Shown here: piece by piece, positions 2,790-35,099 of the stretch
Layout: each line of letters starts with the position of its first letter
How positions within the stretch are numbered: the stretch's first letter is position 1
DNA from: an uncultured Verrucomicrobiae bacterium
Lineage (GTDB): Bacteria > Verrucomicrobiota > Verrucomicrobiia > Chthoniobacterales > JAFAMB01
Length of the DNA stretch: 64,000 bases
Direction: 5' to 3'
NCBI GenBank assembly: GCA_963762565.1
Contig: CAVXLD010000009.1
Location: forward strand, 1-64,000
Position numbers and translations under genes: made by a program
The notes under the pieces: generated by a model
What the model was told of the DNA's origin: nothing
Databases searched by the model: none
What the model saw: only the letters and a program-made list of their open reading frames with translations

Positions 2790-2809
2790 TGCTGGGCCGT
2801 GGGCTTGAA

Positions 2810-3080
2810 TTGGTGGGGCGAGGCTCCCGAAAGATCCCACCCCGTTACCAGCATCGAGCGTGATTCGGCGCCCTAGGTCAGTGCAAGGGCCGAAAACCTC
2901 GCCGAGCCGTGACTGTCATGCTCCACCCCACGCAGCAGCCATTCGGTAGGCTCACACTGTAAAAGGTGGCAGGTCAAGGGAACGGCTCGGCAGCACATCG
3001 GCCTAACGTTCCCACTGGGCATCGAGACAGGTTTAAGCCCTGGGCGGACCCCGGGTCTTTCGGGAGCCTCGCCCTACCAG
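2810..3080. repeat. REP/MITE-like family A: terminal IR TTGGTGGGGCGAGGCTCCCG / CGGGAGCCTCGCCCTACC with inner IR GCCGAGCCGT / ACGGCTCGGC
   Basis: Outer arms 2810-2830 and 3061-3080, inner arms 2901-2910 and 2982-2991; further copies at 18590, 30002-30250, 34746-34920, 39858, 56464. Confidence 0.85.
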
Positions 3081-3158
3081 TGTCGACTTCCACGCGCCCA
3101 CCCCCTCTTTTTTTCTTTCCGCGGAGCGAAAGTTCGACTAACTAGGCCGCAAACCGAA

Positions 3159-28714: not shown

Positions 28715-29917
28715 TCAATTTGTCGCTACCGGGCCAGCTGCATCCAAGGTAAACATCCATTTAGTTTCTACCCTTTTTCCCTTTACCTTGGCGGATAGAA
28801 CCACGGTATAAGATTTTGGCTCCAATTTTTGGGTGAATACGTATGAAACGAGCTTGGTTTTCGGATCGTAGTTAGCGGGCACCAACCCAAAGCCGCTGAC
28901 TCGCATTTCAACGGAGCCGGCATCGACCTCACCCATGGTAGCGATATTCGCTTTTATCGTCGGCTTCGGATTGCTGATATGCGAATTGTCCATGGGCTCC
29001 GTCAGCATCGAAGCAGCCGCCAGTTGAGTCTCTTCAGCTCCTGGGGCTCCAATCTCGCCCCCGAAATCCAGAGCGGCCTTGAACACGGCAGGTTTAATTG
29101 AATCGACGGCGTACCGGCCAACTTGATCGCGCAATACGTTCTGTCCCATGTGCTGGCCATAGACTGTAAACTGGAGTTGGTACCCGGCGTCCATCGCGGT
29201 TTTCCGGACGACTTCGTTGTGAAATCCGTAAGGGAATGCAAAAGCAACGATCTTAATGGCAAGCTTATCTTCCAAGATCTGCTTGCAATCATAAACCTCA
29301 TGATGAAGCCACGTCGGATAATCCTGTCCTCGAGGAGCGTGCCGTAGATCTTTATGTGAAACCGTGTGAGCTTCGATATCAACACCGGCGTCCCGCAGTT
29401 CCTCAAGTTGGCCCCAGGACATCGATTTGCCCCCTCTATCGACGTAATCGGTGTAGATGAAAAGAGTGAACGGGTACCCGTATTCTTTTAAGATAGGCCA
29501 AGCCACGTAGTATTGAGAATTCCAGCCATCATCCAGGGTGATGACCGCGCTTTTCATCGGGATCGACTTCTCGTTGTTGAGCCAGGCAAGCACATCCTTC
29601 ATCGAGATCACCGAGATTCCGTTGTCCTTCAAGGCTTGCATTTGCGCTTTGAAATCAGTCGGCGTGGTAACCAGGTCTCTCGGTTTGTCCTCAAACCGGT
29701 GGTAGCAGAGCACGATAAACCGCGCGTTCTTATTTACCGCCGGCCTAGGAGTTGGCGTCGCACTGGCGACAGCAACCGAGGCGGTCGCGGATGGGCTAGC
29801 ACTGGGTTTAGGCGAACCCGTAACTAGCGCAGTGAGCTCCTGTGCTTTTTTGCACCCGCCCAAAAAAGCGGGAAGCAACGCTAACAACAAAAAGAAACGA
29901 CGTGGCATACAAATCAA
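28715..29917 (-). CDS. Lipoprotein polysaccharide deacetylase (NodB/CE4)
   Basis: Lipobox LGGC, VLCYH, ITLDDG, HTVSH, AFPYG. Confidence 0.9.
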   Translation of the reverse strand: MICMPRRFFLLLALLPAFLGGCKKAQELTALVTGSPKPSASPSATASVAVASATPTPRPAVNKNARFIVLCYHRFEDKPRDLVTTPTDFKAQMQALKDNGISVISMKDVLAWLNNEKSIPMKSAVITLDDGWNSQYYVAWPILKEYGYPFTLFIYTDYVDRGGKSMSWGQLEELRDAGVDIEAHTVSHKDLRHAPRGQDYPTWLHHEVYDCKQILEDKLAIKIVAFAFPYGFHNEVVRKTAMDAGYQLQFTVYGQHMGQNVLRDQVGRYAVDSIKPAVFKAALDFGGEIGAPGAEETQLAAASMLTEPMDNSHISNPKPTIKANIATMGEVDAGSVEMRVSGFGLVPANYDPKTKLVSYVFTQKLEPKSYTVVLSAKVKGKRVETKWMFTLDAAGPVATN

Positions 29918-30001
29918 GCTTTAGACTACCACGCGATTCCAGGTTGTGAAAACCAGATTCGCCGGACAATTTTGGGAGACGAGCGACTTATAGGCATGTC
30001 A

Positions 30002-30250
30002 GTGGGGCGATGCTCCCGAATGTCCGAAATGGGTTCGCGAGGCGTAGCGGCTTTATCTCTAGATATGATGCAACTGTACCGATGCGCTCGCCGAGCCGCG
30101 GCCCAGCGTGCGAATCTGTCGGCAGTCGACCCTCGCCATTATGGCACACGCTGGGTAACGGCTCGGCAAGCGCAACAGCGCAACACATCAGGTCTTTCAG
30201 GAAGTCGGCTACTCTGCGAGCCCTCTATGGACGATCGGGAGCCTCGCCCC
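30002..30250. repeat. Family A element whose right arm is interrupted by the IS110 element
   Basis: gtggggcgatgctcccga ... gccgagccg / acggctcggc ... cgggagcctcgcccc; the missing terminal (ct)accaa reappears at 31855-31861. Confidence 0.85.
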
Positions 30251-30359
30251 CCTATGGTGTTGTCAAGCTACCCAGCGTGTTTTTAGCGGTTTGTCATCTT
30301 TTGTAGAGCAACGTAGTTGCCAAAATTTTTAGTTCAGAGATCGAGCCGGTTTGCGACGG

Positions 30360-30545
30360 TTGGTACGTTTCCTCTTGTGGCTCATGTCTCCGAGCTCGAT
30401 TGGGACAAGGCAGCCTCCTATCCGGCCTGTCAGGGTTTGACAGCGCAAGATGCTCTATACGCATCGCTCAAGAGGAACGAGCGCGCCCAATCTACCAACG
30501 GGCTTTTAAAGCCCAGGGGCGAGCACGAGCGCGCGCCGTTCCAAA
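30360..30545 (-). ncRNA. Putative bridge RNA/seekRNA (boundaries approximate)
   Basis: Internal loop 30474-30542 with target-matching strands (30516-30523, 30492-30498); multibranched domain with junction match at 30415-30421. Confidence 0.75.
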
Positions 30546-30703
30546 GTCCAGAGTTAAAATGTTTAGTCTAGTGCTGTGTCAGCTTCTCCCTTAACCATGG
30601 GGCCTCTTTAGAGGCGCCAGCTTGCTCCTGTTTCCCCCGAACCGGGGTTTGGGGCAGAGCCCCAAGTTAAAACCCGAGTCTTCGGGTCACTTCTAAAATG
30701 GTT

Positions 30704-31810
30704 TTAGCCCTCGATCATGATGAGACCCAATTGCTGGGCAGTAATACGACCGGTTTGTAGCCGCCAGATATCGACGATCAGTTGCCGGCCGATGGCCACC
30801 ACGGCTTTTTTCTTCAGTCCTCGGTTAGAGCCCTCCAGTAGCTCACGCCATTTTTGCACCGCTTTATACTCGGGCTGGAAGAGGATCATCCGCCAGACCA
30901 TCTCGGTGATGATGCGCCGCAGAGCCGGTAGTCCCACTTTGGTGATTGCACCCAAGCGTTGGCTCTCTCCGCTGCTCCATTCACTGGGCACCATCCCGGC
31001 TAAGCAGCCGATCTTGCGTTCAGTTGAGTAAAGATTCCAATCCAGTACTTCAGCATTCAATTGCGCCAAGCTGGGAGCTCCCATCCCCTTTGGCCGTGGG
31101 CCTTGGTACTGCTTGGTTAGCTCTGCCTTGGCTTGCTCAATTTGCTGGTCTAGCTCGCGTAATATCCCAACCCAGCGACCAAGATGTTTTACAATCCAAG
31201 GAGCCACCCCCTTGCTTAAGTGCTCAAAAGCTTTGGGCCGCCACCAATTGCTCCAGCTCTGGTAGCCCTGGCTCAGCAAAAGGGAGTTGCCCATGACGCC
31301 GATGCGCTGGCGTTCTTGCACCAGCGCATCGTGCTGGCGACTTTCCACTCGAGCCTGCTCTTGAGCCTCCCTCGGTATTCTGACCAGTTGCAGCGCTTGC
31401 TCATTGCCATTGAGATAATTGCTCAGATCACTGGTTAAGGTTCGCGCATCAATTGAGTTGTTCTTGCCCCGCTTCCTCTTCTGCTCTCCGCTGCGGGGTG
31501 CACAGACCAGGCACTCAATCCCGCTTGCCTTTAACTGCCGATACAGCGAGTACCCCAGCGGCCCGGCTTCGTAGACCACCACCACTTCCTTGGCTTGCTC
31601 TCGCTGCTTCTCAACGTAAAGCAACAACGCTTCCTTGCTCCCGAATGTCTGGGCTACTCCCACAGCCCCGTTATCGATCTTGCGGGCCGCCTGATAGCTC
31701 TTTAGGTGCGCATCGACTCCCAGCACGATCCGGTTTGCCTTCGCTTCCTTTTGGCTGTTCTTTTCCTGGCTTACGGCGGTTGGTGCCGCCTTGAGTTTGT
31801 ATTCAATCAT
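30704..31810 (-). CDS. IS110-family transposase/bridge recombinase
   Basis: LGVDAH, VYEAGPLGYSLYR, KNNSIDA, AGMVPSEWSSG...GAITKVG, KKAVVAIGRQL. Confidence 0.93.
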   Translation of the reverse strand: MIEYKLKAAPTAVSQEKNSQKEAKANRIVLGVDAHLKSYQAARKIDNGAVGVAQTFGSKEALLLYVEKQREQAKEVVVVYEAGPLGYSLYRQLKASGIECLVCAPRSGEQKRKRGKNNSIDARTLTSDLSNYLNGNEQALQLVRIPREAQEQARVESRQHDALVQERQRIGVMGNSLLLSQGYQSWSNWWRPKAFEHLSKGVAPWIVKHLGRWVGILRELDQQIEQAKAELTKQYQGPRPKGMGAPSLAQLNAEVLDWNLYSTERKIGCLAGMVPSEWSSGESQRLGAITKVGLPALRRIITEMVWRMILFQPEYKAVQKWRELLEGSNRGLKKKAVVAIGRQLIVDIWRLQTGRITAQQLGLIMIEG

Positions 31811-31873
31811 TGTTTGTCAGGCTGCTGTTGATCCGGCAGCCTGACAACACAGCTCTACCAAGTGACAGCGCCG

Positions 31874-33184
31874 TCACGCCTTCCCCTCTTCTCCCAACCT
31901 GAGCTGCTGAAACGTTCGGTTGATATACCGGAAATGTTGTCCCAGAGAACAGAACCCGGCTAATTCTGCCTTTGGGATGACCGCCACGATTTCTGGAATT
32001 TTCTCCAGTTCGGTCAAGAAATCGTCGCTGCCCTGCCAGGTAGCCATCGAAGCTTTCTGCACGGCTTCGTAGGCGGCTTTCCGGTCCATCCCGCGCCGCG
32101 TAAGCTCAAGCAGAATTGCTTGACTGAAATAGAGCCCCTTCGTGATGGCCAAGTTCTGCTGCATGTGCTCGGGATAGACCACCAACCCGTCCACGATATC
32201 GGCCAACGTCAGCAACATGTAATCAAGCAAAATGCAGGAATCCGGTAGGATAATACGCTCGACACTACTGTGACTGATGTCTCGCTCGTGCCACAGAGCG
32301 ACATTCTCGAGTGCGGCTACGGTATTCCCTCGCAAAACACGCGCCAAACCACTAAGCCGTTCACTCGTAATCGGGTTCCGCTTATGCGGCATCGACGAGC
32401 TCCCTTTTTGCCCGGGTTTGAAAAACTCTTCTACCTCTAGAACCTCGGTCCGTTGCAGATGCCGGAATTCGGTTGCCCAACGATCAATGCTGGAAGCCAC
32501 TAGGCCGAGAGTGGTGGAAAATTCTGCATGCCGGTCTCTCTGAATCACCTGCGTCGACAGCAGATCCGGTTTCAGCCCCAATCGCCGGCAAACTTGCTCT
32601 TCGACTCGCGGGTCCAGATGGGCGTGCGTTCCAACCGCTCCACTTAGTTTTCCCACTGCAATCGTCTCTCGAGTCTGGCGCAATCGCTTCTGGGCCCGGT
32701 CGAATTCGTCGTACATCAGAGCCATTTTTAACCCGAACGTGATCGGCTCGGCGTGAATCCCGTGGCTCCGCCCGATCATGGGTGTGTATTTGTATTCCAG
32801 TGCCTTACGCGCGGCGGCTTGCCGGACCAACTCGACATCGGCGAGCAAGATATCGCACGATTTCACCAGCTGAATCGCCAGCGTGGTATCCAGAATGTCC
32901 GACGAGGTCAGACCCTGATGAATCCAACGCGCTGCCGGCCCGACATTGGAGGCAACATTTTCGAGGAACGCGATGACGTCATGTTGGGTGCGCTTTTCGA
33001 TCTCTTGGATCTCAGGCACCGAAAAACGGGCCTTGGCTCGGATTTCCTCGGCATCCGCTGAGGGAATGAGCCCTAGAGAAGCCATCTCTTCACAAGCGAG
33101 CACTTCGATCTCCAGCCAAATGGAAAACTTCCTCTCATCAGCCCATATTTCCCTCATCTCTTGACGGGAGTATCTCTCGATCAC
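31874..33184 (-). CDS. purB: Adenylosuccinate lyase
   Basis: MIERYSR, GRSHGIHAEP, GSSSMPHKRNP, WHERDISHSS. Confidence 0.97.
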   Translation of the reverse strand: MIERYSRQEMREIWADERKFSIWLEIEVLACEEMASLGLIPSADAEEIRAKARFSVPEIQEIEKRTQHDVIAFLENVASNVGPAARWIHQGLTSSDILDTTLAIQLVKSCDILLADVELVRQAAARKALEYKYTPMIGRSHGIHAEPITFGLKMALMYDEFDRAQKRLRQTRETIAVGKLSGAVGTHAHLDPRVEEQVCRRLGLKPDLLSTQVIQRDRHAEFSTTLGLVASSIDRWATEFRHLQRTEVLEVEEFFKPGQKGSSSMPHKRNPITSERLSGLARVLRGNTVAALENVALWHERDISHSSVERIILPDSCILLDYMLLTLADIVDGLVVYPEHMQQNLAITKGLYFSQAILLELTRRGMDRKAAYEAVQKASMATWQGSDDFLTELEKIPEIVAVIPKAELAGFCSLGQHFRYINRTFQQLRLGEEGKA

Positions 33185-34719: not shown

Positions 34720-35033
34720 GTGATTGGTGATTAGTGATTGGTGATTGGTGGGGGCTCCACCCCCAAACAATCAACGTGCAAGGCCCTGTAAACGCGCCGA
34801 GCTGTGGTCTACCGGGGGGCCACGGCTCGGCGTGTTTTTAGTCCCGTTAAATGGTTGGTCGAGAGATGCATTTTTTCCTTGATTAAGCTCTGGGTCGTTC
34901 GGGAGCCTCGCCCTACCAATCACCAATCACCAATCACCAATCACCAATCACCAATCACCAATCACCAATCACCAATCACCAATCACCTCACCAATCACCA
35001 ATCACCAATCACCAATCACCAATCACCAATCAC
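34720..35033. repeat. Family A element flanked by inverted heptamer arrays (ATTGGTG)x~4 and (CACCAAT)x~16
   Basis: gtgattggtgattagtgattggtgattggtgggggctcc ... gggagcctcgccctaccaat caccaat caccaat... Confidence 0.9.
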
Positions 35034-35099
35034 CTCTCACTTCTCCCCTCCCCCCTTCCCACTCTCCACTTTCCGGTCTATTCTCTCTTTCTACTCAAA

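Follow-up and report, generated by a model that had tools for sequence, protein, structure and literature searches.

Introduction

RNA-guided targeting by insertion sequences (IS) of the IS1111 group, including ISPa11, which targets repetitive extragenic palindromic (REP) sequences, has been in print since 2024 (PMC11187229, PMC11208160), and bridge RNAs have been predicted for 93% of the IS1111 elements in ISfinder (Durrant et al., 2024, PMC11208160). Siddiquee et al. (PMC11187229) describe IS1111 elements as carrying left terminal extensions of 7 (or 6) base pairs (bp) and right ones of 3 bp, and their seekRNAs as presenting the complement of the top strand first, the order being the opposite in elements of the IS110 type; the subterminal inverted repeats of the group are given as about 11-13 bp long, and by Durrant et al. 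(PMC11208160) as 7-17 bp. Here we describe a relative of these elements in a 64,000-nucleotide (nt) stretch of DNA ("the window") from an uncultured Verrucomicrobiae bacterium (GenBank assembly GCA_963762565.1, contig CAVXLD010000009.1, positions 1 to 64,000 of the forward strand). It is, with high probability, an IS110-family insertion sequence of IS1111-type layout whose noncoding RNA carries two guides that specify TTGGT-RG-GGCGAG. The element is a further ortholog, from soil Verrucomicrobiota, of a published RNA-guided system and not a new kind of system; what is new is the asparagine at the third position of the DEDD motif in its protein family, a left end unlike that of all 10 relatives, and two flanking cores that differ from one another (AG and GG).

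The window element resembles the IS1111 seekRNA elements ISEc11, ISPa11, ISKpn4 and ISPst6 as these are described (PMC11187229): a DEDD-type recombinase with a Ser/Thr-Gly motif, subterminal repeats, a long downstream noncoding region and, within it, a stem-loop of 70-100 nt whose two short guides overlap where insertion occurs and match the sequences flanking the resident copy. It differs from the described members in the length of its protein (368 amino acids versus 330-350), in the Asn at the third DEDD position and in its Verrucomicrobiota host, and the window copy has, in addition, a left extension that is 4 nt short. Like ISPa11, it has a repeated extragenic target, and the target listed for ISPa11, GTAGGGCGaATAACCGC, has GTAGGGCGAA in common with the target of the window family, GGTAGGGCGAA (PMC13604230); this shared decamer could reflect either coincidence or a shared ancestry of the guides.

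With IS621 and ISCro4 (PMC11208160, PMC11208158) the element has in common the protein fold, a 2-bp core and the recognition of both target strands by an internal RNA loop; a REP-like natural target is also known for IS621 (from the title of a reference), and the core of the window element on the plus strand, CT, is the IS621 core dinucleotide. Unlike the window RNA, which lies in the right end, the RNA of IS621 and ISCro4 is reported to lie in the left end, upstream of the gene, and to have a simple second internal loop for the donor, whereas the candidate donor nucleotides of the window RNA stand in a multi-loop, as reported for many IS1111 orthologs (PMC11208160). The proteins are also far apart, with 13-16% identity, and a profile of the window family does not detect IS621 or ISCro4 by sequence. 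ISPpu9 of Pseudomonas putida (Pares-Guillen et al., 2025, PMC12288879) is likewise an IS110-family element situated in REP sequences with a small-RNA gene downstream of its transposase; its small RNA is reported to be a dispensable and separately mobile module, whereas the guides of the window-family RNA co-vary with the target. Among the matches listed in a literature search on Verrucomicrobia with IS110 or bridge RNA, the phylum was not mentioned in that connection.

The element and its predicted guide RNA

The element occupies 1,604 bp (30251-31854, minus strand) and interrupts one copy of the repeat GGAGCCTCGCCCYACCAA. On the plus strand its left junction reads ...GGGAGCCTCGCC-CC|CCTATGGTGTTGTCAAGCT and its right junction ...CAGCCTGACAACACAGCT|CT-ACCAAGTG, and comparison with the uninterrupted repeat gives an overlap of 2 bp, the core. 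A preliminary description, made from the letters of this DNA alone, had proposed that excision of 30251-31854 together with one 2-bp core restores the end of the repeat; the sequence indeed then reads GGGAGCCTCGCC-CY-ACCAA. The element consists of a 44-nt left end, a gene for 368 amino acids and a 453-nt 3′ noncoding right end, with a subterminal inverted repeat of 13 bp containing one mismatch (GTGTTGTCAGGCT, 31838-31850, versus GTGTTGTCAAGCT, 30257-30269). The IS1111 features named in that description (subterminal inverted repeats and a long 3′ noncoding region) were borne out, and the short left end and the guide stem-loop downstream of the gene belong to the same layout. The parts, in order along the window, are as follows.

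30241..30250, minus strand: right core GG (30249-30250, element orientation) and right target half GGCGAGGC
30251-30253, minus strand: 3-nt terminal extension AGG (element orientation) at the right-end terminus
30251..30269, minus strand: right-end terminus, with the subterminal inverted repeat at 30257-30269 (30254-30269 aligned to the left end of the family)
30251..30703, minus strand: right end, a 453-nt 3′ noncoding region that encodes the predicted guide RNA
30704..31810, minus strand: recombinase gene, 368 amino acids, an intact open reading frame with RuvC-like domain, coiled coil and Tnp domain
31811..31854, minus strand: left end, 44 nt, holding GTGTTGTCAGGCT and an internal hairpin, its outermost AGCT (31851-31854) atypical
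31855..31856, minus strand: left 2-bp core, AG in element orientation (CT on the plus strand)
31857..31861, minus strand: left target half, TTGGT in element orientation (ACCAA on the plus strand), which completes GGAGCCTCGCCCYACCAA when the element is removed and equals the first 5 nt of the 3′ guide

The right end is predicted to encode an RNA with a target-binding stem-loop, which appears both in the fold of the single sequence and in the consensus fold of the family.

30474..30542, minus strand: target-binding stem-loop, the counterpart of a short seekRNA or of the target-binding loop of a bridge RNA, built of two stacked stems, the internal loop and, at the apex, a hairpin (30500-30514)
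30516..30523, minus strand: 5′ guide CUCGCCCC, 8/8 Watson-Crick to the top strand GG+GGCGAG (right core plus right target half, 30243-30250)
30492..30498, minus strand: 3′ guide UUGGUAG, 7/7, equal to the left target half plus core and pairing with the bottom strand CTACCAA (31855-31861)

The basal stem joins GGAACG with CGUUCC, and the second stem joins GCGCGCUC with GGGCGCGC over 8 bp, including one G-U; between them and the hairpin, the internal loop has GUG-CUCGCCCC-U as its 5′ strand and G-UUGGUAG-AUU as its 3′ strand. The preliminary description had seen this stem, internal loop and apical hairpin, although it drew the lower stem too short, and the positions it gave for the two words were accurate (CTCGCCCC at 30523 to 30516 and TTGGTAG at 30498 to 30492, around the hairpin at 30514 to 30500). 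Its claim of a match between guides and target stands for both strands, with the amendment that the two guides differ at the first core position, where the 3′ guide has A and the 5′ guide G. Together the guides match 15 of 15 nt of the two flanks, overlap at the core and jointly specify TTGGT-RG-GGCGAG, the complement of the top strand lying 5′ of the complement of the bottom strand. When the 453-nt region was shuffled 100,000 times with dinucleotides preserved, the first word occurred in 986 shuffles and the second in 1,445, and the two in order within 60 nt in none (0/100,000).

An exhaustive word search of the noncoding RNA against target and donor, with G-U allowed, proved too noisy below 7 nt for donor guides. 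It also returned a perfect 9-nt match between GCGCUGUCA (30446 to 30438, in the arm of hairpin 2) and the left flank TGACAGCGC (31862-31870), outside the repeat; this is probably chance, since the RNA word is kept in relatives whose flanks differ. No second copy of the element and no free-standing copy of the RNA was found within the 64-kb window.

Relatives and guide-flank covariation

One scan of a genome collection with the family alignment yielded 16 loci, 15 of them from metagenome-assembled genomes (MAGs) of Verrucomicrobiota/Chthoniobacterales and one from a bin labelled Solirubrobacterales. Downstream sequence was available for 13 loci; the same RNA is present in 12 of these, and the right end is conserved from stop codon to terminus in 12 of the 13 related loci having a downstream region. 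Locus L007 has lost both RNA and right end, the remnant L015 keeps the RNA with an unrecognizable right end, and L003 is a decayed copy with a truncated left end and a guide mutation.

Both the guide and the right flank could be read at 12 loci (window copy included). Over these, the 5′ guide and the right flank form 92 Watson-Crick pairs out of 96, with 3 G-U and a single mismatch, which is in the decayed L003. There are five distinct 5′ guide variants (CUCGCCCC, UUCGCCCU, CACGCCCU, CUCGCCCU and CCCACUCU), each opposite its own flank variant, and when the seven guide-flank classes were permuted, 12 of 5,040 permutations matched the observed fit. The guide-target covariation that the preliminary description had named as a check on its reading was, in other words, positive.

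Window: 5′ guide CUCGCCCC, right flank GGGGCGAG
L002, L004, L005, L008, L016: 5′ guide UUCGCCCU, right flank AGGGCGAA
L001: 5′ guide CACGCCCU, right flank AGGGCGTG
L009: 5′ guide CUCGCCCU, right flank AGGGCGAG
L011: 5′ guide CCCACUCU, right flank AGGGTGGG, one G-U
L012, L014: 5′ guide UUCGCCCU, right flank AGGGCGAG, one G-U
L003 (decayed): 5′ guide UUCGACCU, right flank AGGGCGAA, one mismatch

On the left side, the guide GGUAG stands opposite GGTAG in 5 relatives, and in L011 guide and flank both read GGAAG. L011 (2402-3999) is a naturally retargeted element: both of its guides have changed (CCCACUCU and GGAAG), and its site, GGGAAG|GGTGGG, lies outside the usual repeat. The sites of L001, L008 and L011 have in common the 8-10 nt matched by the guides, the rest of the repeat being absent, which argues for recognition of a short sequence and not of the structure of the repeat. 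The consensus fold of the RNA has 56 pairs, with 97.4% of cells paired, versus 37-50% when the partners are slid; helix 2 is paired in 98.7% of cells and contains 2 pairs that changed on both sides (one A-U in 7 rows and G-C in 4, the other G-C to A-U).

L007 and L011 come from the same MAG. The copy in the Solirubrobacterales (Actinomycetota) bin, L005 (contig CAVSAY010000013.1, 277-6374), is nearly identical to the copies L002-L004 of a Verrucomicrobiae MAG and sits at the extreme end of a 473-kb contig, which suggests a transfer, a chimeric contig end or a binning error.

The recombinase

The protein matches the C-terminal Tnp domain of Pfam (PF02371) with 46.4 bits against a cut-off of 21.3, and the NCBIfam profile NF033542, "IS110 family RNA-guided transposase," with an E value of 4e-39 and 134.7 bits over 337 of 343 profile positions. 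An AlphaFold model built with 32 relatives (mean predicted local distance difference test score 72.9) had, as its ten best Foldseek matches in the PDB, chains of the ISCro4 and IS621 synaptic complexes (E values 1.7e-7 to 1.4e-6, template modeling scores 0.38-0.48), at the 13-16% identity given above. Pfam, NCBIfam and fold thus agree with the earlier assignment of the protein to the IS110 family of recombinases.

The predicted active-site residues are D33, E81, N118, D121 and S280-G281. Three of the four DEDD residues (D33, E81 and D121) are present and invariant in the family, and the nucleophile motif, G272-M-V-P275-SEWS-S280-G281, fits G--P----S/T-G and also GL-P----S(t)G, the IS1111 form given by Siddiquee et al. 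(2024, PMC11187229); at least 90% of the family members have Thr at residue 280, and all have G281. Asn (N118) takes the third DEDD position, within a segment (residues 116-122) that reads KNNSIDA in the family versus KTDxxDA in 4 of 4 annotated IS110-family proteins, and N117 and N118 are invariant in 32 of 32 aligned members. The spacing of 3 residues between N118 and D121 equals that between D102 and D105 of IS621. The window protein retains every residue that is invariant in the 32-sequence alignment, of which it is itself one row.

Metagenome proteins matched in number (494 at an E value of 0.001 or less); the 120 matches listed are 66-100% identical, and a cluster of identical protein is present on 8 metagenome contigs. 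A search of a plasmid collection gave 897 matching records, all below 60% identity, and among the matches listed none exceeds 33%.

Other RNA domains

Further parts of the right end are conserved outside the target-binding stem-loop.

30635..30663, minus strand: two hairpins rich in G+C (GGGGCUCUGCCCC and CCCCGGUUCGGGG) that follow the stop codon directly, conserved in all aligned relatives
30371..30475, minus strand: second RNA domain in the consensus fold, a multi-loop whose closing stem pairs CCUCUUG (30475-30469) with CAAGAGG (30377-30371) and which contains three hairpins
30308..30320, plus strand: hairpin near the right end, conserved and with a T run after it on the plus strand, a terminator-like site on that strand only, antisense to the element

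The post-stop hairpins (L007 lacks 5 nt of the first; the remnant L015 keeps both) could be a candidate site for processing or protein binding. In the second domain, single-stranded AUAGGAG (30421-30415), 3′ of hairpin 2, equals the right-end terminus ATAGG plus core AG, and GCAUCU (30453-30448), 5′ of hairpin 2, is complementary to AG+ATGC, the core plus the left end of the family. The order guide-hairpin-guide resembles that of the target loop, and this domain may read the element's own ends, a lead drawn from these two short matches: they are of 6-7 nt, the ends are invariant among relatives and hence nothing can co-vary, and hairpin 1 is predicted to take up GCAUC as the partner of GAUGC. 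We estimate the noncoding RNA at roughly 70 to 180 nt. The plus-strand hairpin, whose stem is kept in relatives while its loop varies, might stop transcription that enters the element antisense from outside.

Weighing the evidence

Several findings weigh against the reading of the window element as an RNA-guided insertion sequence of the IS1111 type. In the protein, the N-terminal RuvC-like DEDD domain (PF01548) scores 28.3 bits, just below its cut-off of 29, and NF033542 also falls just short of its cut-off (140); searches of PDB sequences with the single protein and with the 32-sequence family profile gave no useful chain; and the Asn occupies the third DEDD position, where mutation of D102 killed the activity of IS621. 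In the RNA, the left guide match covers 5 nt only in 6 relatives; the independent guide-flank changes number about 4 or 5 and not 12, many loci having a recent common ancestor and the same repeat; and only 3 of the 56 pairs, all in the target-binding stem-loop, change on both sides while most are invariant, so that the RNA structure rests mainly on conservation and energy. A promoter scan found no sigma-70-like promoter on either strand of the element, and inspection alone disclosed no convincing -10 hexamer at the reconstructed junction of the ends. Finally, the left end of the window copy, AG|AGCTGTGTTGTCA (AG|AGCT-GTGTTG), is 4 nt shorter than that of the family, AG|ATGCCATGGTGTTGTCA (AG|ATGCCATG-GTGTTG), and is not complementary to the candidate donor guide GCAUCU.

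This last point bears on the copy more than on the family, and it is here that the strongest alternative arises: that the family is RNA-guided and mobile, while the copy in the window is a fossil with an altered left terminus, unable to excise or to serve as a donor. We regard this as an appreciable possibility, somewhat short of even. Where the window copy ends in AGCT, ATGCCATG stands in all 10 relatives whose canonical left end could be read (L002, L004-L007, L010-L014), among them the closest two, L006 and L013 (83% protein identity), whose left ends are otherwise nearly identical to that of the window; the candidate donor guide fits the end of the family only, and decayed relatives do exist (L003, L007 and L015). 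Against a fossil stand the full-length gene with all invariant residues, the RNA, the right end and the perfect match of both guides to the flanks, as well as the cluster of identical protein on 8 contigs, whose lineage may be multi-copy with this very left end; moreover, how IS1111 elements read their own ends is treated as unsettled in the literature (PMC11187229). The window copy may be disabled, or another end may serve in its immediate lineage. A window-specific compensating change in the RNA was sought, and no convincing complement to AGAGCTGTG was found; the loops of hairpin 1 and hairpin 3 of the window RNA do differ from those of relatives. No simple deletion accounts for the AGCT left end. 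We therefore keep the reading of an RNA-guided element for the family and for the anatomy of this copy (intact gene, RNA, right end and guide-matched flanks) and add, with its altered outermost left end in mind, that it may no longer be mobile. The larger claim of the preliminary description, a divergent RNA-guided recombinase readable from the locus alone, holds in its anatomy, complementarity and covariation, and needs a caveat as to whether this copy works.

The flanking cores are the second peculiarity of the window copy. They differ, with AG on the left and GG on the right, while in complete relatives whose left end is canonical AG stands at either junction (6 of 6). The guides show the same difference, AG being read by the 3′ guide and GG by the 5′ guide, as in the two flanking cores of the occupied site; against each of the 6 intact free copies of the repeat they have exactly one mismatch, which falls on the first core position, and they fit the degenerate copy at 29999 less well (4/7 for the 3′ guide). 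In ISEc11, the flanks of the resident copy are reported to have to match the RNA for excision to occur (PMC11187229), and if that rule applies here, the perfect fit of the guides to the occupied site would matter. The pattern of AG and GG could come from recombination between donor and target with unlike cores, followed by replication. One might go further and propose that the Verrucomicrobiota clade is a distinct subfamily of RNA-guided recombinases that works with Asn at the third DEDD site and tolerates or exploits a degenerate first core position, a proposal that we consider doubtful. The corresponding residue of IS621, D102, is described as specific to IS110 and as hydrogen-bonding the glycine beside the catalytic serine, its mutation abolishing activity, and the third Asp of the motif as holding the serine loop of the partner subunit (PMC11208158, PMC11208160); by analogy, the Asn at position 118 could keep a hydrogen bond of the D102 type.

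A second alternative would place the element in the IS110 group proper, in a branch with a downstream noncoding region, in which case the details of IS1111 seekRNAs would not apply. The 368 amino acids lie outside the 330-350 given for IS1111 and inside the 345-385 given for the ISEc21 cluster, and some IS110-type elements are reported to have a 3′ noncoding region (PMC11187229). The best annotated plasmid relatives, 27-33% identical, are labelled merely "IS110 family," and the plasmid matches listed, all labelled "IS110 family transposase" or unannotated, give no help in the choice; the IS1111 placement is one made by features. Those features nevertheless make the alternative unlikely. The left junction of the relatives reads ...GGT-AG|ATGCC-ATGGTGTTGTCA and the right junction ...TGACACACACCAT-AGG|AG-GGCGAA, giving, with one core taken as part of the element, extensions of 7 bp on the left (AG+ATGCC) and 3 bp on the right (AGG), which are the IS1111 figures; the window copy has the 3-bp right extension, its left one being 4 nt shorter and different in sequence. 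To these are added subterminal repeats of at least 13 bp (longer in the relatives, where they start at ATGGTG), the short left and long right ends, the Thr-Gly/Ser-Gly motif and the IS1111 order of the guides. We accordingly retain the IS1111-type layout for the element.

In a third possibility, target choice would not require the downstream RNA, which would be a passenger or a small regulatory RNA comparable to Ssr9 of ISPpu9; the recombinase itself would recognize the repeat. A passenger would not be expected to have the two halves of the insertion site, from opposite strands, on either side of a hairpin and to change with the flanks in five variants, and the sites of L001, L008 and L011 share only the guide-matched 8-10 nt; we think this explanation very improbable. 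That the guide matches arose by chance, or from a fragment of the repeat captured in the element, can be rejected, for although the words have only 8 and 7 nt and the repeat abounds in the genome, they occurred together in order within 60 nt in none of the 100,000 shuffles, are oppositely oriented relative to the repeat and hence are not a copy of it, and are conserved and co-varying in other genomes.

The target repeat and its surroundings

The target belongs to a repeat family whose existence the preliminary description had asserted and which is real by count: GAGCCTCGCCCYACCAA, allowing up to 3 mismatches, has 8 matches in the window versus 0.36 expected, a number reached by 0 of 100 shuffles, and a shorter pattern of the repeat has 9 matches versus 0.77 expected. 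Besides the occupied site, the window holds 6 intact copies and the degenerate copy at 29999; leaving the latter aside, the Y position is T in 3 free copies and C in 3. Two pairs of copies face each other over about 235 bp (2810/3064 and 29999/30239), and the other four copies stand alone. The second pair bounds the unit that hosts the element.

29995..30250, no strand assigned: host repeat unit, which together with ACCAA at 31857-31861 forms a palindromic unit of about 270 bp, both termini being inverted copies of the target repeat

The element is inserted inside the right terminus of this unit. A second palindromic unit of about 270 bp, compared with the first by BLAST, lies at 2805-3085, and both are predicted to fold as long hairpins (-147 and -154 kcal/mol). 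The units are like miniature inverted-repeat transposable elements or bacterial interspersed mosaic elements, and their interiors have the motifs CTCGCCGAGCCG and CGGCTCGGC in common. An Rfam scan of 29500-32500 with E values up to 1 identified no family for the RNA region and returned two chance-level matches only, one of them with a plant microRNA model, at the repeat hairpin, the other with a Yersinia small-RNA model (17 bits against a gathering score of 100). The below-threshold hairpin match, at 30065-30191, is explained by the same long hairpin of the palindromic unit. A tandem array of the 7-nt unit ACCAATC (34915-35034, 17.4 copies, 96% matches) extends from the ACCAA end of the free repeat copy at 34903-34919.

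The gene upstream of the element has the same strand and is, to judge from its translation, adenylosuccinate-lyase-like; the element lies about 20 nt past its stop codon and is followed by the next gene.

Discussion

By analogy with ISEc11, ISPa11 and IS621, we infer a mechanism in which the RNA would be transcribed, would be bound by the recombinase and would direct recombination. In such a mechanism, the 5′ guide CUCGCCCC would pair with the top strand of the core and right target half, the 3′ guide UUGGUAG would pair with the bottom strand of the left target half and core, and the complex of recombinase and RNA would bring a circular form of the element to the target site, where strands would be exchanged beside the 2-bp core through a serine-linked intermediate.

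The protein scores slightly below the cut-off in each of the two curated profiles (PF01548 and NF033542), so that such elements and their RNAs may go unlabelled in genome annotation; the repeat that the element targets can serve as a marker for further insertion sites. The conserved change from Asp to Asn is flagged at a residue reported to be essential in IS621. Were the Verrucomicrobiota clade to prove a subfamily that works with this Asn and a degenerate core, the rule of identical cores assumed for bridge recombinases would be relaxed and the clade would offer an orthogonal, compact scaffold for engineering.

The guide-target code of the IS1111 type can be read from raw sequence alone, and the same code holds in Verrucomicrobiota. 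To the compact RNA-guided recombinases the family adds a divergent and naturally retargeted set of orthologs with five guide variants, and what makes it valuable is a clean natural series of covariation, together with the Asn in the active site and the two peculiarities of the copy in the window.

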